Counted from the stretch's first letter, positions 9,352 to 52,645 are shown. The stretch is 64,000 nucleotides of DNA from an uncultured Candidatus Saccharibacteria bacterium (GCA_964436545.1 CAYTCJ010000001.1:14392-78391), one strand, 5' to 3'. The notes: generated by a model not told the origin, from the sequence alone. Program-made: numbers and translations.

Positions 9352-10053
9352 TTGGGATGCCCTTCGTTGATTTGGATTGCGTTTATGATTATTTTTAAGT
9401 ATTCTAAACAACAACACAACCAAATAATCCAAGCCAGTGTGAAAGCTTTAAAACAAGGTAAAATTATAGTTTACCCGACTGATACTTGTTATGGTTTGGC
9501 AGTGGATGTGAGCCGGCTTCAGGCCATAAAACAACTTTACAAATTAAAAGGTAGAAATTTTAACAAACCCAGTTCCGTGGTGGTGCCGAGTTTGGCTTAT
9601 GCAAAAAAAATTGTGCAGTGGGGTAGTGAGGCACAGAAATTGGCAAAAAAGTTTTGGCCGGGAGCTATAACTTTGGTTTGCTCCCTCACCCTACCCTTTC
9701 CCTCTAGGGGAGAGGGGAGAGGGTTTAGAATTCTAACCGCAAAGACAAATTTTTTAGGTTTAAGACTGCCAAAAAATAGACTCGCTCTCGATTTAGCCAA
9801 AGGCTTAAAAAAGCCCATTACCGCAACTTCTGCCAATTTGGCGGGAAAAAGTGAGTGTTATTCAGTAGATGAAATTGTTCAACAATTTCAGCATCAAAAA
9901 ATTAAACCCGATATTATTATTGACGCTGGCAAATTACCTTTCCAAAAGCCATCTACTTTGGTAAAGCTGGAACATTCCGGTCAAGTATCCATAATTAGAC
10001 AAGGGCCCATTACTCAGTCACAAATTAAAAAAATTATAAACGCTAAACGCTAA
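9352..10053 (+). CDS. tsaC: L-threonylcarbamoyladenylate synthase (YrdC/Sua5 family) with in-frame palindromic insertion
   Basis: YPTDTCYGLAVD motif; imperfect cccctc-type palindrome at ~9681-9726 encoding PFPSRGEGRG. Confidence 0.8.
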   Translation: MGCPSLIWIAFMIIFKYSKQQHNQIIQASVKALKQGKIIVYPTDTCYGLAVDVSRLQAIKQLYKLKGRNFNKPSSVVVPSLAYAKKIVQWGSEAQKLAKKFWPGAITLVCSLTLPFPSRGEGRGFRILTAKTNFLGLRLPKNRLALDLAKGLKKPITATSANLAGKSECYSVDEIVQQFQHQKIKPDIIIDAGKLPFQKPSTLVKLEHSGQVSIIRQGPITQSQIKKIINAKR

Positions 10054-12947: not shown

Positions 12948-13520
12948 TTGGAAATGGACTATTTATTAAATTGGGATAATCAGATTTTCTTGTGGCTGAA
13001 TCAATGGGCTGGGCAAGCCAATTTTACCGATGGGTTAATTCGGTTTTTAGCTCAAGATTTTCCTTATGTGGTAGCCATTGGTTTTATCTTAGTGTGGCTG
13101 TGGCGGGCGGAGGCGCGCCGGATGCTTTTGCAAGGTTTTTTGGCTTTACTGCTAGGCAGAGTAATTTTGGTGGAGATAATTAGACAAATTTTACCTCGGA
13201 GCCGACCTTTTGAAGTTTTGCATGTGGTGCAAATAATTAGTAAAGGCATGGAAAAATCTTTTCCGTCCGGCCACGCCACAGCTTTATTTGCTTTGGCTTT
13301 TTCCGTGTATTTTTATCATAAAAAATGGGGAGCAGGGTTATTGATAATATGTTTTATTTCGGTTTTAGCTCGGGTAATGGCCGGAGTGCATTATTTGTCC
13401 GACATTTTAGCCGGTGTGGCTTTAGGTTGGTTTTCGGCTTGGATAATACATACCTATGCCCATAAAGTAACTGATAGTTTACTGGGTTTTTGGCATAAAC
13501 TTGATTTTTGGCATAAATAA
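12948..13520 (+). CDS. PAP2 family phosphatase (undecaprenyl-diphosphatase-like)
   Basis: KSFPSGHAT and SR..xxH PAP2 motifs, membrane protein. Confidence 0.7.
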   Translation: MEMDYLLNWDNQIFLWLNQWAGQANFTDGLIRFLAQDFPYVVAIGFILVWLWRAEARRMLLQGFLALLLGRVILVEIIRQILPRSRPFEVLHVVQIISKGMEKSFPSGHATALFALAFSVYFYHKKWGAGLLIICFISVLARVMAGVHYLSDILAGVALGWFSAWIIHTYAHKVTDSLLGFWHKLDFWHK

Positions 13521-21460: not shown

Positions 21461-21610
21461 AGGTTATTCTTTATTATTTATTAATAGATTTATTATAATG
21501 GAAAATTGTTTTTTATCAAGGTTAAATGTGTGGATGGCTTTGCACAAAATAAAAAAGCTCAATTGATGAGCCAAAGACTAATCTTGTTAAAATTTTATTT
21601 AGCTTTGTTA

Positions 21611-22357
21611 CTATTCAAATAACAACAAAGCCCACATAGCTACAATTCCAACAATAAACCAGAGTAAATGGATAAGCGCCACGGTTTTATTTTCTTCCTT
21701 TTGCAGTTGGGGGATTAGGTCGCTCATGGCAATGTAAATAAAACTGGCAGCCGAGAGGGCGAGGAGGGGAGTTAAGGAGAGGGTGGAATTTTTAAAAATC
21801 CATAAAACCAAAATTGAGCCTAGCACCGCAGTTAAGGCGGAAATAAAATTATAAAAGAGAGCTTTGGTTTTAGAAAAACCGCCGTGCACTAAAATGGCAA
21901 AGTTGCCCAGCTCTTGGGGAATTTCGTGAAAGATTACCGCTAACGTGGTGGCTATGCCCAAAGTCGGGCTAGTTAAATAGGCAGCAGCAATCACCATACC
22001 GTCTATAAAATTATGCATGCCATCGCTAATGAGGCTTAGGTAAGTGTAAGCGTGCACAGTTTCGTTATGCTCGCTGTGCGGATGGTGCCAAAAAATAAAT
22101 TTTTCCAAAATGAAAAAAATAATTATTCCCGACAATAACCACACACCGGTAAAGTTTGTCCAGCCGGTTTCGGTAATTTCCGGCAAAATATGAATAAAGA
22201 CATCGCCAAGGAGGGCGCCGGCGGAAAAACTCACCAAAGGTAAAAGCCAGTGCTTTAATTTTTCATTACCAATAATTAAGGTAATAATCCCAACCAATGA
22301 GATTAAACTTACGGCAAAAACGCTGAGTAGAGAATAAGTCCAAATGTGGGTAGGCAT
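21611..22357 (-). CDS. zupT: ZIP family zinc/metal transporter
   Basis: HNFIDGMVIAAAY and FHEIPQELGNFAIL motifs. Confidence 0.8.
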   Translation of the reverse strand: MPTHIWTYSLLSVFAVSLISLVGIITLIIGNEKLKHWLLPLVSFSAGALLGDVFIHILPEITETGWTNFTGVWLLSGIIIFFILEKFIFWHHPHSEHNETVHAYTYLSLISDGMHNFIDGMVIAAAYLTSPTLGIATTLAVIFHEIPQELGNFAILVHGGFSKTKALFYNFISALTAVLGSILVLWIFKNSTLSLTPLLALSAASFIYIAMSDLIPQLQKEENKTVALIHLLWFIVGIVAMWALLLFE

Positions 22358-22359
22358 AG

Positions 22360-23430
22360 TTAGTTAACTTGTTTGATAGCCAAAAAAGTAAGTAAGCTTA
22401 TTATAGCTCCAAACAACAAAGCAGACAATAAGGTGTTAGACCCAGTTTCGGGTGCGGTAAAGGTATTGGTGCCCGCAACACTACCCGGATTAAAGATGTT
22501 TTGTTCAGCGCGCTCCACAACTAAATTTACAGCTCCACTGCCCCCGCTGAATTGTAAGTAGTAAGTGCCATTATTTAATTCCGCAAGGACTTTTTTGACT
22601 GCGCTGGGACAGGTGGCGGAAGAGCCGGACATTAAAGAAATTTCTCCACCCGAGGAATTGGTAATTTTTACCGGCAGGTTTTGGTTAAGTAAAAAAATGT
22701 AATCGCCGGATGTGGGGGGTGTAAAAGCAACATAGTTTTGGTTGTGGGGTAGAGAGATATTAAATCTAGTATGCGAACGGGAAACATCGGGCGCATTTTG
22801 GGTTTGCTGGGTAGCGGTAACCGCTCTATCCGGTCCGTTTTGCACGTGTAAGCAGGCATGTTCTTCTAATTCATCAATTAAATTTTGATTGGTCACAGTC
22901 CCGTTGGGGGTTGGAGTTGGGTTAGGGTTTGTATTGCCAGTTGGGGGATTGGGGTTTGCATGAGAACGAGCGGGTATTGTAAGGGTGGTGGCGCTGGACA
23001 CCGGATTGGCGTTTTGGGCCGTGGCTGAGGCGGTATCTTGGCTTTGTCCGCTTTGAATGGTTTTAGCTTTATACATAATTACAGTCGGCGATGCCGTAAT
23101 GCTGGTAAATCTTAAACCCCCACTGGTTAGACCGGTTGGGGAGCTTTGACCATTTACAGTTAAACTGCCGGGAAGATATTCTAATAAGTGAGAGGGGAAG
23201 GTGTCGCTAACTACGGCATCCACAATATTGATGCCATTGGCGCTTTTAACCTCTAATTTAAATTCCACTTCTTCGCCTAAATGAACTTCCGCAGTGCTGG
23301 CAAAATCACCGGCGTCACTTAAGTTTCGCACGGTTTTTTGCAGGCTTAATTGGCCTAAGTTGGCTCCGGCCAAAGCCAGGTGAGGGCTTATAAACGGTAA
23401 GATTAAGAATAAGAATAAAAGTTTTTTCAT
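22360..23430 (-). CDS. secreted Thr/Pro/Asn-rich surface protein with C-terminal APETG-TM-KQVN anchor-like tail
   Basis: signal peptide, low-complexity NPNPTPTP linker, C-terminal sortase-like sorting signal. Confidence 0.5.
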   Translation of the reverse strand: MKKLLFLFLILPFISPHLALAGANLGQLSLQKTVRNLSDAGDFASTAEVHLGEEVEFKLEVKSANGINIVDAVVSDTFPSHLLEYLPGSLTVNGQSSPTGLTSGGLRFTSITASPTVIMYKAKTIQSGQSQDTASATAQNANPVSSATTLTIPARSHANPNPPTGNTNPNPTPTPNGTVTNQNLIDELEEHACLHVQNGPDRAVTATQQTQNAPDVSRSHTRFNISLPHNQNYVAFTPPTSGDYIFLLNQNLPVKITNSSGGEISLMSGSSATCPSAVKKVLAELNNGTYYLQFSGGSGAVNLVVERAEQNIFNPGSVAGTNTFTAPETGSNTLLSALLFGAIISLLTFLAIKQVN

Positions 23431-23481
23431 AGGTTTGGTTAGCTGGCGTGAGATTAATAATTATTTATGATTAAATAATAT

Positions 23482-23502
23482 AAATGCAAATCATTTGCAT
23501 TT
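23482..23502. promoter_or_regulatory. perfect 21-nt palindrome AAATGCAAATCATTTGCATTT; candidate Fur-family (Zur-like) operator in the promoter of the surface-protein/ZIP operon
   Basis: 7-1-7 inverted repeat architecture; second copy at 24705-24723. Confidence 0.5.
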
Positions 23503-23523
23503 TATAACAACTGTGTCGCTATG

Positions 23524-24111
23524 TCAATGGGACGACAGTTTTGTAAAAGTTAAGCACCTAATCCCATTTAGCCAACTCAAGGTGGTTTGGTGTTGGAAAG
23601 TAAAGTGGGCGACAGTGCCGAGGTTAATAATTTCTCGGGGTTGGTAGTATTGTTTAAAAAAATATTTTTCCGGGCACTTGTCTTGGTTTAAAAACCATTG
23701 CGACAGTTTGGTTAGAGGCATTAAGTCCACAATTAGCAGTTGGCCCAAGGGTTTTAAGACTCGGTAAGCTTCGGTTAAAATTAATTCCGGATTGGGGTAG
23801 TGGTGGCCGGAAAAGACGCAATCAAAAGTGTGCTCGGCAAAAGGTAAGTGTTCGGCATTGGCTACTGTAAACTGAGCCCAAGGATTTTGGTGTTTGGCTC
23901 GGTTAATGGCAGTGGGGGAAAGGTCTATGCCATAGCCTGTTAGGCCGGGGCAAAATTTCTTTAAGATTCTTAATTCATTGCCATTTCCGCAAGAAATATC
24001 TAAAAATTCAGGATTTGGAGGCAAGGTAAAAAGCTTAAAAAATTTTTTTTCTTCGGAAAAGTTTAACCAATTAGAAAGTTTTTTAAGCATATTTGTTAAA
24101 AGTTGTGGCAA
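23524..24111 (-). CDS. class I SAM-dependent methyltransferase
   Basis: motif I LDISCGNG, motif post-I/II pattern. Confidence 0.65.
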   Translation of the reverse strand: MPQLLTNMLKKLSNWLNFSEEKKFFKLFTLPPNPEFLDISCGNGNELRILKKFCPGLTGYGIDLSPTAINRAKHQNPWAQFTVANAEHLPFAEHTFDCVFSGHHYPNPELILTEAYRVLKPLGQLLIVDLMPLTKLSQWFLNQDKCPEKYFFKQYYQPREIINLGTVAHFTFQHQTTLSWLNGIRCLTFTKLSSH

Positions 24112-24153
24112 GGGGAGAGGTGGCTAGTTCCTCCCGCTTGCCTAAAAAAGGTT

Positions 24154-24690
24154 TTAGTGGTCGTGCCCGCCCCCAAAGGGGAGGGCTCGGGTTGCGCCGT
24201 GGGTGAGAAGCTCGGCCAGAAAAGCGGAGATCCCGTGGCCGAAAGCCACTTTTTTAAGCGGGCCCCAAATCCGCCTTTCAAAAAAACCTTTCTTTTGAAT
24301 GATTGCTACTTTATATGCTCGGCTGTCCGAGCAAATATAATAGCCTATCCTGTCCACCTTTTGTCCTGCCCAAGCCCCAGGCAGGACACAAAACACCGCG
24401 CTTTGGGTCTGCTGGTTCTTCCAGTCAGACCAAGATCCAGCGCCCCACACTACCTTCTGGTCGTGCCAGAGAGGCGGGGGGTAGTTTCTCCGTATTTGGT
24501 CATATGTTCCGAGCAGGGGGCCCGGGTACACGACCACGGCCTGAAACCCCGTGGGAAGGTTTTTTAGGAGGTCTTCCAATCCTCCTTCGTGTTGTGGCAC
24601 GCCACGGCGCGAAAAGCCGTGGTCGTGCCCATCTTGCCCCAGGGCGCACCATGGGGCGAACAAAAGCGCCAAAAACAATAGTAACAGCAT
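24154..24690 (-). CDS. GC-rich gene for a secreted protein with His motifs (HDH near N-terminus, GGGHDH at C-terminus); possibly metal-binding, possibly foreign
   Basis: signal peptide; starts right after the second palindromic box; GC far above local average; region also contains palindromic elements, so the coding call is tentative. Confidence 0.35.
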   Translation of the reverse strand: MLLLLFLALLFAPWCALGQDGHDHGFSRRGVPQHEGGLEDLLKNLPTGFQAVVVYPGPLLGTYDQIRRNYPPPLWHDQKVVWGAGSWSDWKNQQTQSAVFCVLPGAWAGQKVDRIGYYICSDSRAYKVAIIQKKGFFERRIWGPLKKVAFGHGISAFLAELLTHGATRALPFGGGHDH

Positions 24691-24704
24691 CGCTTACATA
24701 TCTT

Positions 24705-24723
24705 AATGCAAATCATTTGCATT
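24705..24723. promoter_or_regulatory. second copy of palindrome AATGCAAATCATTTGCATT in the divergent promoter between the His-motif gene and the Fur-family regulator
   Basis: perfect 19-nt inverted repeat. Confidence 0.5.
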
Positions 24724-24839
24724 TGTCAATATCCAAAAATTACAGATGGCATTAATACTCAGATGACGTTTGTAAACCTATTTTTTAGCCAGCCATCAAA
24801 TTATTTGGCTAATCGCAAGTTTTATTCTATAATTTCCAT

Positions 24840-25265
24840 ATGCAAACAGTGTGCAATATCCACAAGGAAAAAATTTCTAAGTCCCTAAAAGCGGGTAAAT
24901 TAAAAGTAACCCCCATAAGGGTTCGGTTGTTAGATATTTTAGAGCATGCCCACAAGCCCCTAAGGGTTAAGGACATTTGTCAAAAAATAAAATCCGACAT
25001 TGTTACGGTTTATCGGAATTTGGAAAATTTGGTGGCGTTGGGTTTGGTGAAAAGAATTTTTTTAGATCAAAAAGAAGCCTATTTTGAATTAGCCAATCAA
25101 GCTCACCACCACCACGCAATTTGTCAGCTGTGTGGTTTGGTTGTAGATGTAAAAATTGCTCACCATAACCAATTGGAAAAAACCGCTTTAAAAACTTCCG
25201 GGTTTGCCAATATTAGTAGTCATAGTTTGGAATTTTTTGGAATTTGTAAAAAGTGTCAAAAGTAA
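24840..25265 (+). CDS. Fur family transcriptional regulator (Zur/Fur-like)
   Basis: winged-helix N-terminus, HHHH and two CxxC pairs in the C-terminal half. Confidence 0.8.
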   Translation: MQTVCNIHKEKISKSLKAGKLKVTPIRVRLLDILEHAHKPLRVKDICQKIKSDIVTVYRNLENLVALGLVKRIFLDQKEAYFELANQAHHHHAICQLCGLVVDVKIAHHNQLEKTALKTSGFANISSHSLEFFGICKKCQK

Positions 25266-26375: not shown

Positions 26376-26819
26376 ATGAATGCTCAACCAAATTTTACCA
26401 CTCAACCAGAGCAAACTCGGGTAGAAAAACCTTGGGGTTTTGAAATTTTATTTACCCCGGCTACTTTTCCGCATACGGGTAAAATATTATTTGTTCAGGC
26501 GGGGAAAAAACCTTCTTTTCAATATCATGACGAAAAAGAAGAAGTGATTTGTTTGTATAGTGGTAAAGCTTTAATTTGGCTGGAAAATAGCCAAGGCGAA
26601 ATAGAAAAAATTCCCATGGAGCTTCAGAAAGGTTATTTGGTGCAAAAATTTCAAAAGCACAGAGTAGAAGCCATTGAGGATAGTTTTTTTCTGGAAAGTT
26701 CTTCTCCGGAAACGGGCATTACCGTGCGTTTGGAAGACGATTACAAACGGCCGGACGAAACCGAAGCCATGAGAAACTCCAAAAATCGCGGTTGGGTGGG
26801 CGGAAACCATAATCTATAA
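26376..26819 (+). CDS. cupin domain protein (phosphomannose-isomerase-like fold)
   Basis: EKPWGFE and QYHDEKEE cupin motifs. Confidence 0.5.
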   Translation: MNAQPNFTTQPEQTRVEKPWGFEILFTPATFPHTGKILFVQAGKKPSFQYHDEKEEVICLYSGKALIWLENSQGEIEKIPMELQKGYLVQKFQKHRVEAIEDSFFLESSSPETGITVRLEDDYKRPDETEAMRNSKNRGWVGGNHNL

Positions 26820-26842: not shown

Positions 26843-27019
26843 ATGTCCAACGAAAACCCCCATTATGTATGTGCCGGCACTTGCGGAGGCGTGTCCGACC
26901 ATGCCCAAAATTGTGAAGCGGAGAGTTGTAATTTTTTTAACGAACCCCTGCATGAATGTTATTGCGAAGATGGACTGCACAGAGAATCAATTCCGGACGC
27001 TGAGATGGTCAATGCTTAA
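26843..27019 (+). CDS. Cys-rich small protein (58 aa, 7 Cys, 4 His), not in the supplied ORF track
   Basis: ATG..TAA ORF read by hand: MSNENPHYVCAGTCGGVSDHAQNCEAESCNFFNEPLHECYCEDGLHRESIPDAEMVNA. Confidence 0.3.
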   Translation: MSNENPHYVCAGTCGGVSDHAQNCEAESCNFFNEPLHECYCEDGLHRESIPDAEMVNA

Positions 27020-49531: not shown

Positions 49532-52084
49532 ATGCTCTTGGGTTTCGATGCAGTACAAATTGCCTTTTTAATTTTAGTTGCCCTAGTTATTGTTTTTGGC
49601 TGGGTGTTTTTTTATTTTTTTAAAAAACACGTTTATCATAAAGGGCATGTAGTGCCTCGCACGCTGGATTGGGTATTTTTGGAAATTCAAATGCCCAAAG
49701 AAAATAGTGAAGATAAAGACCAACAGCGAACTAAAAGTGAAGAAGAAAAAAAAGCCCTCATTGCTGTTGGTGAACAACTATTTACGACGCTATCGGAAAG
49801 CGGACACAGTAAGGGGTGGCTCAAGGGTAAGGATTATTATAGTTTTGAAATTGCCTGTACTGATAAGAAAATTTCTTTCTACATTAATTGTCCGAAACAT
49901 TTACAGCAATTGGTGGAAAAACAACTCCAAGCCCAGTATCCTCATGCGTTTGTGGAGCAGGTGAAGGGGTATAATCCGTTTCAAAAAGGTTCAGAGGTGG
50001 AAGCCAAGGAATTACAATTAAATAAAAAATATGTTTACCCGTTTCGCACTTATAAGAACACCGAAACCGATCCGTTAAACGCGCTTACCAATGCCATGAG
50101 TAAACTTCAGGAAGGTGAGGGTGTGGCGATTCAGTATGTTATTAGTCCGGCAGGCACAGCTTGGCAATCTACCCCTCGGCATATGGCTTTGGAAGTCCAG
50201 CAAGGCAAGAATCCGGAGTTAATTGAACGGGGACATATTTACAAAGTGTTTATTGGGTTTCGACGCTTTTTAGCCAGTGTTTTAACCGGCACTACCGGTC
50301 AGCAAAGCCAAGGTTCGCATGTGCATAAAGATTTAAGCGGTTACGGGGCGCCAATTCAACTTACCCCCATGCAACAGGAAATTGTTAAACGGCTCGAAGA
50401 AAAGGCCAGCCGACCGGGTTATAAAATGAACATTCGTTTGGTGACTTCTTCGGTAATTCCGGGAAATGCCAAAATGCATATGCATAATTTGGTTTCCAGT
50501 TTTTTGCAATATAATTTTCCGCCCTTTAACGGTTTAAGGGAAAAACGAAGAAACAAGAATGAAGTGTTGATTGATTACATTTTTCGGGTATTTAGAGATT
50601 ATGGTAAAACCAATATTATTAATACCGAAGAGATGTGCTCGTTGTGGCATTTGCCCACGCCGTTTATTGAGACACCGAATATTAAATGGTTAATTTCCAA
50701 AAAAGCTCCTCCGCCCATTAATGTGCATCAGGCAGGTTTGTTGATTGGTAAAAATATTTATCGGAACGTGGAAACTCCCATTTATATGGGCCGGGAAGAC
50801 AGACGCCGACATACTTATATTTTGGGCAGAACCGGAAGCGGTAAGTCCGTGCTGTTGTCCAACATGGCCATTCAGGATATTAAAAACGGCGAAGGTTTAT
50901 GTGTAATTGATCCGCACGGCGATTTGATTCAAGATATTTTATTAAATTGTCCCAAAGAACGAGCCGAAGACATTATTGTTTTAGAACCGTTCGATATGGA
51001 GCGTCCGATTGGTTTAAATATGCTGGAAGTGGACAGCGAAGAACAAAAAGATTTTGCCGTGCAGGAAATGATTTCGATTTTTTATAAATTGGTTACCGAT
51101 CCGGCCATGCTGGGGCCCATGTTTGAACATAATATGCGTAATGCCATGTTGACTTTAATGGCCGACGAAGAACATCCGGGTACCATAACCGATGTGCCGA
51201 GGATTTTTACCGATACCGAATTTCAACGTTATAAATTATCTAAAGTGAAAGATCACGTAGTGAGATTATTCTGGGAAAAAGAAATGGCGAAAACCTCGGA
51301 TTTTCACAAATCGGAAATGTTGGGGTATTTGATTTCCAAGGTGGGTCGGTTTGTGGAAAATACCATGATGCGCAATATTGTCGGGCAATCCAAGAGTGGT
51401 TTTAATTTTAGAAAAGTGATGGATGAAGGCAAAGTGTTATTGGTAAATTTATCCAAAGGCCGAACCGGTGAAATTAATGCCAAGTTATTGGGGTTAATTC
51501 TTGTTTCTAAAATTCAAATGGCAGCATTATCTCGAGCGGATATACCGGAAGAAAAACGTCGCGACTTTTATTTGTATGTAGATGAGTTCCAAAATTTTAT
51601 TACCGATGCGTTTTCCTCAATTTTATCGGAAGCGAGAAAATATAAGTTAAATTTAATTATCGCACACCAGTATTTGGGACAGTTAGAAACTCAGGCCGGG
51701 GCTCAAGGGGCTGGCAGTAAAGATTTACGCGATGCGGTATTTGGCAACGTGGGGACTATGGTGGTGTTTAGAACCGGAGCGGAAGATAGCGAAGTTTTAG
51801 GCAAGGAATTTAGCCCGACTTTTAACCAGTTTGATTTGGTAAACATAGACAGGTATAATGCTTATGTAAAACTCATGGTCAATGGCACAGCCAGTAAGCC
51901 GTTTAATATGGCGACAATGCCTCCGCGTAAAGAAGGCACGGAAGAAGTCGCCAATGCCATCCGCCAATTGTCTCGTTTAAAATATGGACGAGCCAGAGCC
52001 GAAGTGGAAGCTGAGCTTTTGGAAGCCGGACAAGTGGCAGAGAGTATGGCCGAAGCCTTGCCGGCCATTGAACGAGGTTTGTAA
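49532..52084 (+). CDS. membrane-anchored TraG/TraD/VirD4-like (type IV coupling protein family) P-loop ATPase, 850 aa
   Basis: N-terminal TM; Walker A LGRTGSGKS; Walker B YVDEFQNF; IIAHQYLGQL...FGNVGT motif typical of TraG/VirD4 family. Confidence 0.65.
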   Translation: MLLGFDAVQIAFLILVALVIVFGWVFFYFFKKHVYHKGHVVPRTLDWVFLEIQMPKENSEDKDQQRTKSEEEKKALIAVGEQLFTTLSESGHSKGWLKGKDYYSFEIACTDKKISFYINCPKHLQQLVEKQLQAQYPHAFVEQVKGYNPFQKGSEVEAKELQLNKKYVYPFRTYKNTETDPLNALTNAMSKLQEGEGVAIQYVISPAGTAWQSTPRHMALEVQQGKNPELIERGHIYKVFIGFRRFLASVLTGTTGQQSQGSHVHKDLSGYGAPIQLTPMQQEIVKRLEEKASRPGYKMNIRLVTSSVIPGNAKMHMHNLVSSFLQYNFPPFNGLREKRRNKNEVLIDYIFRVFRDYGKTNIINTEEMCSLWHLPTPFIETPNIKWLISKKAPPPINVHQAGLLIGKNIYRNVETPIYMGREDRRRHTYILGRTGSGKSVLLSNMAIQDIKNGEGLCVIDPHGDLIQDILLNCPKERAEDIIVLEPFDMERPIGLNMLEVDSEEQKDFAVQEMISIFYKLVTDPAMLGPMFEHNMRNAMLTLMADEEHPGTITDVPRIFTDTEFQRYKLSKVKDHVVRLFWEKEMAKTSDFHKSEMLGYLISKVGRFVENTMMRNIVGQSKSGFNFRKVMDEGKVLLVNLSKGRTGEINAKLLGLILVSKIQMAALSRADIPEEKRRDFYLYVDEFQNFITDAFSSILSEARKYKLNLIIAHQYLGQLETQAGAQGAGSKDLRDAVFGNVGTMVVFRTGAEDSEVLGKEFSPTFNQFDLVNIDRYNAYVKLMVNGTASKPFNMATMPPRKEGTEEVANAIRQLSRLKYGRARAEVEAELLEAGQVAESMAEALPAIERGL

Positions 52085-52112
52085 AATTTCTAATTCCTAA
52101 TTTTAATCAATA

Positions 52113-52346
52113 ATGGCAGAAGAAAATTATATTAGCATTTTAGGTAAGTTTTTAAGTAATCTGTTACAGAATGGTAAAATTAGCATTAAAGATTCGGTAA
52201 TTATTATGAAGGCCTTTGAGCCGGTGTGTACGAATATAAAAACTCGGCAAGATTTAATTCAGTTTTTAGATAAGTATGTGGGGTATTATTGGGAATTAAA
52301 AACATTAAAAAGTCAGTTATTAGATTCACATCATAAATTTGATTAA
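52113..52346 (+). CDS. hypothetical protein (77 aa)
   Basis: ORF only. Confidence 0.35.
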   Translation: MAEENYISILGKFLSNLLQNGKISIKDSVIIMKAFEPVCTNIKTRQDLIQFLDKYVGYYWELKTLKSQLLDSHHKFD

Positions 52347-52354
52347 ATAACTTT

Positions 52355-52645
52355 ATGTCAGGACATGGACATGGACATGGGCACGAATCACATGGGGGCG
52401 GGCACGAGTCACACGGTGGCGGTGGGGGTGGTGGTAAAGGGTACTTAGGGAAGTTTTTTAAGGAATTTTCCCCTTTATTTTTAGCCGGCACCATGTTGTT
52501 TAATATGTTTGACCAAAAAGGGGTGGTGGAGTTTGTAAACCACTTTTCTAATCCGGCTGTGGAATTTTTTAGCGCTCCCTTTGTTAAAGGGGGTGGTGGG
52601 GGCGGGGGGCATGGCGGTGGGGGCGGGCACGGGGGACATCATTAA
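52355..52645 (+). CDS. His/Gly-rich small protein (HGHGHGHESHGGGHESHGG... ...GGGGGHGGHH); putative metal-binding
   Basis: low-complexity termini around a hydrophobic core; opposite-strand Pro/Cys ORF considered an artefact. Confidence 0.4.
   Translation: MSGHGHGHGHESHGGGHESHGGGGGGGKGYLGKFFKEFSPLFLAGTMLFNMFDQKGVVEFVNHFSNPAVEFFSAPFVKGGGGGGGHGGGGGHGGHH

Follow-up and report, generated by a model that had tools for sequence, protein, structure and literature searches.

A candidate metal-uptake regulon with palindromic promoter boxes and a Fur-family regulator in a Patescibacteria bacterium

Genes, boxes and predicted promoters of the locus

We analysed a gene cluster in a 64,000-nucleotide stretch of DNA (hereafter the window) from an uncultured Candidatus Saccharibacteria bacterium, in which genes for a ZIP-family metal importer, a surface protein, a methyltransferase and a secreted 178-aa protein lie on the minus strand, divergent from the gene of a Fur-family regulator, with two copies of a palindromic box on predicted promoters (Table 1). 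The promoters and the terminator were called by consensus scan and are predictions from sequence patterns. An earlier note on this DNA had listed the ZIP, surface-protein, secreted-protein and Fur-family genes, all of which stood, and had overlooked the methyltransferase gene inside the cluster. The ZIP gene starts 2 nt past the stop codon of the surface-protein gene. Its product shares the Pfam Zip domain with the ZupT/BbZIP family, matches BbZIP structures weakly and fails the ZupT equivalog NF003243 (63.3 bits versus a cutoff of 252).

The 19-mer AATGCAAATCATTTGCATT occurs in two exact copies in the window (23483-23501 and 24705-24723), and allowing 3 mismatches returned zero further matches across the 64 kb (mean of 0.15 in shuffles). 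The 15-mer core TGCAAATNATTTGCA likewise has two exact matches, and a third site with 2 mismatches at 13228 corresponds to the level given by shuffles, that is, to chance. The half-site octamer, ATGCAAAT or ATTTGCAT, and the relaxed pattern TGCAA-N5-TTGCA are absent from the window outside the two boxes. Box 1 and box 2 have 20 nt in common and unlike flanks; they are independent sites, neither parts of a duplicated block nor copies of a repeat dispersed in the source genome. Occurrence of the palindrome at many non-promoter sites, which the earlier note had named as the mark of a generic repeat, was not found in the window, where the only two copies both lie on predicted promoters.

Box 1, located 52 nt upstream of the surface-protein start codon and directly past the methyltransferase stop codon, encloses the −10 hexamer and the expected start site of the predicted surface-protein/ZIP promoter, in agreement with its earlier placement in the promoter of this minus-strand operon. 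Box 2 lies, as had been stated, between the divergent 178-aa and Fur-family genes, whose starts are 15 nt and 117 nt away from it, respectively, and it fills the −35/−10 spacer of the predicted 178-aa promoter. The intergenic alignment showed that the TTGACA adjoining box 2 is kept in orthologous loci, and that a TATAAT 6–10 nt ahead of the Fur ATG is kept in all of them. An operator on the core promoter is the classic set-up for repression by occlusion. In both the 178-aa and the Fur-family gene a mere 7–10 nt separate the −10 hexamer from the ATG (24690-24700 and 24833-24840), which suggests leaderless mRNAs; the 178-aa mRNA, with its ATG 10 nt past the end of the −10 hexamer, is probably leaderless. 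The methyltransferase gene is probably co-transcribed with the 178-aa gene.

Table 1. Genes, boxes and predicted transcription signals of the cluster (positions in the window)
Feature	Position	Strand	Basis or remark
Terminator-like hairpin and T-run	21556-21572	-	Past the ZIP gene; likely operon end
ZIP-family divalent-metal importer, 248 aa	21611-22357	-	Pfam Zip (PF02535) E = 1.8e-39, 136.3 bits versus cutoff 35.1
Surface protein, 356 aa	22360-23430	-	One DUF11-type repeat, TIGR01451 E = 8e-8; first gene downstream of box 1
Operator box 1 (putative), AAATGCAAATCATTTGCATTT	23482-23502		Perfect 10-1-10 palindrome on the surface-protein/ZIP promoter; exact sequence
Predicted sigma-70-like promoter, TTGACA-17-TAAAAT (11/12)	23499-23527	-	Surface-protein/ZIP operon
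Class I SAM-dependent methyltransferase, 195 aa	23524-24111	-	Methyltransf_11 E = 6e-21
Secreted protein, 178 aa, HDH and GGGHDH termini	24154-24690	-	GC-rich; first gene downstream of box 2
Predicted promoter, TTGACA-18-TAAGAT (10/12)	24700-24729	-	178-aa gene
Operator box 2 (putative), AATGCAAATCATTTGCATT	24705-24723		9-1-9 palindrome on the 178-aa gene promoter, divergent from the Fur-family gene; exact sequence
Predicted promoter, TTGGCT-17-TATAAT	24805-24833	+	Fur-family gene; ends 7 nt before ATG; ~80 nt from box 2
Fur-family metalloregulator, 141 aa, putative Zur-like repressor	24840-25265	+	PF01475 E = 3.8e-21, 75.9 bits versus 23.1
Weak box-like sequence, TGCAAACAGTGTGCA	24841-24855		At the Fur start codon; 1 mismatch to TGCAA-N5-TTGCA; membership doubtful

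Conservation of the boxes in orthologous loci

Orthologues of the regulator with 62–91% identity were traced to their contigs (loci L081-L088 and L209). Annotation assigns the regulator homologues to Patescibacteria or Doudnabacteria, which places the window in a bacterium of the candidate phyla radiation (CPR). All of these loci keep the box arms, with flanks that vary and a central base that may be C, G, T or A, and orthologous regulators in related genomes, a point raised by the earlier note, are thus seen paired with the same box. Gene order is intact in L081-L085 (ZIP, surface protein, methyltransferase and 178-aa gene, then the divergent Fur-family and GNAT genes), and both boxes are kept there; the central base of box 1 is changed from C to G in L081-L083, and box 1 of L084 carries one arm mismatch, a different central base and diverged flanks. 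The simplest loci, L086 and L087, consist of a single box flanked by divergent ZIP and Fur-family genes; in L088 a distant 178-aa homologue accompanies two boxes, and in L209 the Fur-family gene is divergent from a 178-aa homologue followed by the ZIP gene. The methyltransferase gene, present in L081-L085, is missing both from the equivalent clusters (L088, L209) and from the loci with only ZIP and Fur-family genes (L086, L087); it is probably a passenger. In the intergenic alignment (window, L081, L084, L086, L087 and L209) box 2 is the most conserved block, and the L209 box TGCAAGTNACTTGCA (TGCAAGT-G-ACTTGCA) carries a symmetric double change that preserves the palindrome. A 373-aa protein encoded downstream of the second box in L088 was considered as a surface-protein homologue and rejected on an unconvincing alignment to the window protein.

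The box recurs across phyla beside ZIP and ZnuA-type genes

Distant homologues of the regulator (30–48% identity) gave 80 further loci totalling 1.21 Mb, mostly from CPR bacteria, with some from Verrucomicrobia, Bdellovibrionales and others. The exact 15-mer was present in 9 of these loci, and 17 had it with at most 1 mismatch, while the relaxed pattern TGCAA-N5-TTGCA gave 47 matches over 40 loci. More than half of these matches (25/47) are located at most 150 bp upstream of a regulator start, at a density approximately 100 times that of the remaining sequence. The seventh arm positions co-vary as A/T, G/C or C/G pairs in 23 of 34 sites and the inner T..A is kept in 24, the conserved pattern being (A/T)TGCAA-[A/G/C]T-N-A[T/C/G]-TTGCA(A/T). 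Of the 7-1-7 layout proposed earlier, the window palindromes are real (10-1-10 and 9-1-9); the relatives conserve a 6-5-6 site with a co-varying seventh position instead of a strict 7-1-7 one.

The regulator adjoins a ZIP or ZnuA-type gene in all 25 box-positive loci; this partner is the next gene downstream in 24 of them, and in L001 the ZnuA gene is divergent. Pfam confirmed the ZIP, ZnuA and YibE/F partners on examples. The Verrucomicrobia show either the order box, ZIP, regulator (L057 and L060) or the order box, znuA, with the regulator further downstream (L035, L065 and L051, a metagenome-assembled genome of Akkermansia muciniphila), and boxes away from the regulator precede a second ZIP gene in L052 and a ZnuA gene with two boxes in L064. 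The ZnuA-type protein of L018 matched the zinc-specific YcdH, AdcA, Lmb and ZnuA at 4e-63 to 1e-43 and Mn/Fe proteins at ~1e-30; the ranking for L051 was similar, but the Fe/Mn/Zn-binding YfeA also scored high. NCBIfam ranked AztC or ZnuA first for 3 of 4 box-linked ZnuA-type proteins, all below the cutoffs, and by inspection several such proteins have His-rich loops. Zinc is preferred as the effector mainly because the box-linked ZnuA-type proteins most resemble zinc-specific binding proteins.

The earlier suggestion of a lineage-specific box did not hold, since Saccharibacteria, Microgenomates, Verrucomicrobia (Akkermansia among them) and others all carry this box, and since its variants equal a Desulfovibrio Zur box and its arms those of Nur. 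A 17-bp box, Zur_D (ATGCAAC-N3-GTTGCAT), has been predicted upstream of znuABC-zur in two Desulfovibrio genomes (Rodionov et al. 2004, PMC545781). This predicted consensus, ATGCAACNNNGTTGCAT, is the C/G variant of the box, a likeness at the level of the box; exact copies of it stand upstream of distant regulator homologues in L018, L022, L040 and L075, and copies with one arm shortened in L037 and L064. The window box has the arms ATGCAA/TTGCAT and the spacing in common with Zur_D and equals it at 12 of 14 specified positions; what differs is that A/T replaces C/G in the seventh positions and that the inner T..A is fixed (ATGCAAAT-N-ATTTGCAT). The gene arrangements differ as well: the Desulfovibrio system comprises ZnuABC with the regulator last in the operon, whereas in the window the transporter is a ZIP protein and the regulator is divergent from its putative targets. 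Nur of Streptomyces coelicolor, a nickel-responsive Fur homologue, has a footprinted 6-5-6 box, tTGCaa-N5-ttGCAA (An et al. 2009, PMC2691836), with the same outer arms and spacing as the window box, and the Nur-like TTGCAA-ATGAT-TTGCAA occurs exactly in L024, L057 and L065. Unlike in the Nur box, the inner T..A is also conserved here, so that the site in this clade is of the n-1-n type, and in the loci examined we found no nickel transporter or sodF genes adjoining the boxes. The difference from the classical Fur, PerR and B. subtilis Zur boxes that the earlier note had claimed was borne out. The B. subtilis Zur box is TCGTAAT-N-ATTACGA. The PerR box TTATAATNATTATAA (consensus from PMC545781) is also unlike the window box. 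Literature searches with the box sequence found nothing relevant, and those for Zur in Patescibacteria returned incidental mentions only and no paper on a Zur regulon.

The exact 17-mer was also searched for in metagenomes, where 80 loci were examined of at least 120 matching stretches. Fur, ZIP, ZnuA or YibE/F genes lie near the box in approximately 12 of these 80. About half of the examined loci belong to one unrelated dispersed repeat with ATGCAAATNATTTGCAT at its centre (...GGCAGTGGCATCAGCTGGACCAT-box-CTCGCTCCAGACAGATAACCA...), represented by L092, L093, L097, L098, L102, L106, L109, L110, L113 and some 30 further loci; it recurs across numerous contigs from a few host-associated metagenomes, and no Fur or ZIP genes lie near it. 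The repeat looks like a transposable-element-type sequence unrelated to the operator. Because of it, the 17-mer scan alone is a poor definition of the regulon: the palindrome sequence by itself does not prove an operator, and it is position and linkage to the regulator that carry the case.

This repeat is one of two observations that would fit palindromes of a non-regulatory kind, such as hairpin terminators, remnants of repeats or mobile elements, or chance AT-rich palindromes; the other is the location of box 1 directly past the methyltransferase stop codon. A terminator role is unlikely, because RNA folding is weak (−5.5 to −9.8 kcal/mol, with 2 of 3 folds not clearly better than shuffles) and because the box lies between divergent genes in L086, L087 and L209, where there is nothing to terminate. 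Only two copies with unrelated flanks exist in the 64 kb, and the ~100-fold enrichment upstream of regulator homologues, together with the covariation that preserves the palindrome, would be unexpected for a repeat or for chance. We therefore consider it highly improbable that the boxes are anything other than operators.

Several box-positive loci contain further recurrent genes. A YibE/F-like membrane protein (PF07907) is encoded divergently from or near the regulator or box in 13 of the 25 (within ~3 kb of the regulator in L004, L005, L006, L013, L017, L022, L028, L033, L040, L061, L074 and L075), and a perfect box lies between the YibE/F gene at L089:1177-2286 and a divergent ZIP gene. The window has no YibE/F gene, and a literature search linking YibE with zinc returned author-name matches only. 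Possibly the YibE/F protein belongs to this regulon as a transporter under metal control. Away from the regulator, boxes of the ATGCAAC...GTTGCA variant (L029:5153, L037:8107 and L038:4048), with an extra T at the end of 3 of 4 arms, precede an open reading frame (ORF) of 312–316 aa, which by Pfam is a P-loop NTPase of the CbiA/ParA/ArsA type in L029 and L037 and which in L038 resembles these in length. The ORF may encode a metallochaperone-type member of the regulon.

The regulator and its likely effector

By profile match and conserved residues the regulator is a bona fide Fur-family protein. The PF01475 match covers profile positions 3–120 of 121, and both CxxC pairs, which align with those of PerR and FurB, are conserved in 28 homologues together with the HHHH motif, E83 and H128; C95/C98 and H90-H92 are invariant, and C136/C139 nearly so. 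In its logic the system would follow B. subtilis Zur and actinobacterial Zur (M. tuberculosis FurB and S. coelicolor), in which a metal-loaded dimer represses zinc uptake via a promoter palindrome. Further likenesses are the structural Cys4 site formed by the two CxxC pairs, the HHHH motif, and the resemblance of the box-associated binding proteins to YcdH, the B. subtilis ZnuA-type zinc-binding protein.

The subfamily was assessed by score rankings against curated models and solved structures, and here a series of results weighs against a zinc-sensing Zur. The regulator reached no NCBIfam Fur-subfamily equivalog cutoff. It scored 27.7 bits with the Zur model PRK11639 (cutoff 167), and its best partial NCBIfam matches were PerR and Fur, with 67.8 versus 180 bits and 43 versus 200 bits for the PerR equivalogs. 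A profile of the 28 homologues placed B. subtilis PerR first among solved structures, followed by several Fur proteins, above all Zur; M. tuberculosis FurB/Zur ranked 9th, Nur 13th and E. coli Zur near the bottom. The best single match in the PDB was again B. subtilis PerR, at 4e-15 with the protein and 3.5e-31 with the profile. The sensing-site ligands of M. tuberculosis FurB (PDB 2o03) are D62, C76, H81 and H83. In the alignment the D62 and C76 positions are occupied by K71 and A85 of the regulator, unlike in B. subtilis and actinobacterial Zur, and only the His pair, H90 and H92, is present; the conserved H36, E83, H90, H92 and D103 resemble instead the five-ligand Fur/PerR regulatory site. 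The box does not fix the metal, because Nur shares its outer arms, and ZIP/ZupT transporters can carry Fe, Mn and Co besides Zn. Finally, autoregulation is doubtful in the window genome because box 2 lies ~80 nt from the predicted Fur promoter. In the compact locus L209 the right box arm, TTGCAT, is 17 nt ahead of the TATAAT of the Fur-family gene, so that a single box could serve both divergent promoters there.

The sequence tests thus do not place the regulator in Zur, and its Zur-like working rests on the genomic context. Of the earlier proposal of a Zur-like regulator, the contextual part was strengthened by the ZIP and ZnuA genes and the box, whereas by sequence the protein is no recognisable Zur, stands nearer to PerR and Fur and is without the Asp and Cys ligands. 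Similarity alone would name the subfamily Fur or PerR, though the gene context points to zinc uptake.

The same residues and scores would suit an iron- or manganese-responsive repressor of the Fur/Mur type, possibly the sole Fur-family protein of a reduced genome, with the ZIP protein importing Fe2+/Mn2+ or a broad range of metals. Among solved structures PerR and Fur come nearest, and H36/E83/H90/H92/D103 form an N/O-rich site of the Fur/PerR/Mur kind with no Zur-type Cys. The ZIP protein is below the ZupT equivalog cutoff, ZupT-like proteins are in any case broad-range, and PF01297 also takes in Mn/Fe binding proteins. Against this explanation, the box-linked ZnuA-type proteins score clearly higher with YcdH, AdcA and Lmb than with Mn/Fe proteins, and His-rich loops occur in several of them; the box is the predicted Desulfovibrio Zur box and no Fur box, and none of the boxes in the loci examined was seen to adjoin FeoAB, ferritin, siderophore or MntH genes. 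We regard an iron or manganese sensor as unlikely, though the ligand pattern makes it a serious rival.

A PerR-like peroxide sensor or a Nur-like nickel sensor with the ZIP cluster as a side target appears very improbable. It would account for B. subtilis PerR as the best single structure match, for the TGCAA-N5-TTGCA arms, which are those of the Nur box, and for an AhpC peroxiredoxin gene beside the distant L029 box, where it is divergent from the NTPase gene; the last of these also tells against zinc. However, the partner in 25 of 25 box-positive loci is ZIP or ZnuA and not catalase, rubrerythrin, Dps, sodF or nik, the PerR box TTATAATNATTATAA is unmatched, and all PerR equivalog cutoffs were missed widely.

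Proposed working of the regulon

We conclude that the cluster is probably a small metal-uptake regulon of a Patescibacteria (CPR) bacterium under a Fur-family repressor, which would most likely sense zinc and work in a Zur-like manner. This agrees with the core of the earlier reading (a Fur-family regulator that acts through a palindromic operator on the genes of a ZIP transporter and of a His-motif secreted protein, with zinc as the likely metal), which gained from the conservation of the box among orthologues and from the link of box, regulator and ZIP/ZnuA across phyla; a lack of metal transporters, which would have counted against it, is not seen, as the ZIP gene lies in the window. Four points are inferred: the regulator would bind the box, it would thereby repress transcription, zinc would be the effector, and both extracytoplasmic proteins would handle metal. 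When metal is plentiful, the metal-loaded dimer would bind both operators, (A/T)TGCAAAT-N-ATTTGCA(A/T). On the surface-protein/ZIP operon the dimer at box 1 would cover both the −10 hexamer and the point where transcription begins, and at box 2 it would occupy the −35/−10 spacer of the promoter from which the 178-aa gene and the methyltransferase gene behind it would be read. With the bound repressor over the core promoters, RNA polymerase would, we propose, be excluded from both. When metal is scarce, the repressor would leave the DNA, and the ZIP importer would be made along with the two extracytoplasmic proteins, which may capture metal or hand it over.

An operator and regulator of this type are widespread and have already been predicted, and the mechanism is a textbook one. 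The new parts are peripheral: a secreted protein family tied to the locus type, a surface protein predicted to be co-transcribed with ZIP, and the recurrent YibE/F partner elsewhere in CPR. To our knowledge, transcriptional regulation in Patescibacteria is almost uncharted, and the locus offers a clean case that can be tested with the purified protein and a 21-bp oligonucleotide. The pattern (A/T)TGCAA-N5-TTGCA(A/T) appears to serve a whole Fur-like subfamily in CPR, Verrucomicrobia (including gut Akkermansia) and others, and it ties this subfamily to the old Desulfovibrio prediction. Regulon members to which no function had been given, namely the secreted protein, the surface protein and, elsewhere, YibE/F, become candidates for metal handling.

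The secreted and surface proteins

The 178-aa gene has 56% G+C compared to 39% for the window. Compared with its L081 counterpart it differs at 88 nucleotides, 67 of them in the third position of a codon, and in 75 codons, 56 of which still specify the same amino acid; because third-position substitutions dominate, the ORF is a real coding sequence. A GC-rich non-coding RNA at 24154-24690 was rejected on the same substitution pattern, and Rfam found just two tRNAs in the window. No Pfam or NCBIfam family matched the protein. A word-indexed search of 5.8 billion clusters found two close homologues, and an exhaustive profile search of 1.84 billion representatives brought the number to four (P0035-P0038), adding the more distant P0037 and P0038; one of the four is a doubtful repeat match. 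One further relative is an ORF in L088. The family is thus very small, and every member with known context adjoins a Fur-family gene and a box, P0037 (L209) lying between a divergent Fur-family gene and a ZIP gene, directly upstream of the latter (Fur<>P0037-ZIP). The His-rich termini are found in the window clade and L088 and not in P0037 or P0038, while E160 and H164 are invariant in 6 of 6 family sequences. Structure prediction was poor (pLDDT 43.9, then 57.7), and the model had no match in the PDB. Context and composition suggest a role of the protein in metal capture or hand-over.

The raised G+C content extends to the homologues, each of which is 7–19 points above its own genome, third positions included (0.56 versus 0.39 in the window and 0.48 versus 0.39 in L209; compared regions, window 24154-24690, L081:4443-4982, L084:9347-9880, L088:1280-1864 and L209:967-1467). 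Recent horizontal transfer as the cause was rejected, as the G+C is raised in every homologue, including the distant L209 and L088.

The surface protein has, by inspection, a signal-like N-terminus, a Pro/Asn/Thr linker and a hydrophobic C-terminal anchor; it belongs to no Pfam family, and just three close homologues were found. A motif of its C-terminal domain, EEHACLHVQNGPDRA...SRSHTRFNISL (EEHACLH), is conserved in the three homologues and matches no family, and we consider this domain a candidate metal-binding domain. The invariant E160/H164, the His-rich termini in part of the 178-aa family and the conserved EEHACLH domain are the grounds for a tentative proposal, possible though rather doubtful, that the secreted 178-aa protein works with the DUF11-type surface protein as an extracellular module for metal capture, of a kind not described before, which feeds ZIP, and that the YibE/F proteins are zinc-regulated metal transporters. 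If true, such a module would fill the ZnuA/ZinT/AdcA-like role for a ZIP importer in a cell-wall-bound, host-dependent CPR bacterium.

Box-like sequences in coding regions and other ORFs of the window

The window regulator gene opens with ATGCAAACAGTGTGCAAT (MQTVCN; 24840-24857), which is 1 mismatch from TGCAA-N5-TTGCA. In L004 and L024 (both at 10002) and in L049 (5786) a perfect TGCAA-N5-TTGCA overlaps the regulator start, where TTGCAAATGATTTGCAAT reads L/M-Q-M-I-C-N, and L036 (10002) has a box with 1 mismatch to the 15-mer at this place. The conserved N-terminal MQxxC peptide may be the relic of an operator embedded in the coding sequence, and TGCAAACAGTGTGCA in the window a possible relic of an autoregulatory site. 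The start-codon box is probably not under selection in the window because it is degenerate in L081, L084 and L086. One-mismatch boxes also lie within the regulator gene at L086:10483, L087:10406 and L088:2354, where ATGCAAATCATGTGCAA represents the codons of the C-terminal ICKSCA with the second CxxC pair; these are probably coding coincidences.

Two additional ORFs that the earlier note had offered as metal-buffering components, 26843-27019 and 52355-52645, do not appear to belong to the regulon, as no box is found near either of them even at 3 mismatches. The first, of 58 aa, has seven conserved Cys and several His residues (HY[VI]CAGxCGGVSDH...C...C...HECxC) and is syntenic and boxless in L081 and L084; neither it nor a 147-aa ORF at 26376-26819 matched a Pfam or NCBIfam family. 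We take it for a genuine small protein, probably one that is metal- or redox-binding. The second, a His/Gly-rich ORF of 96 aa with (GH)n and Gly/His-rich termini, follows an 850-aa ORF (49532-52084) and a 77-aa ORF, and this context (49532-52645) has no relation to the box. Read in antisense, the 96-aa ORF yields a long Pro/Cys-rich ORF, an effect of the repeat.

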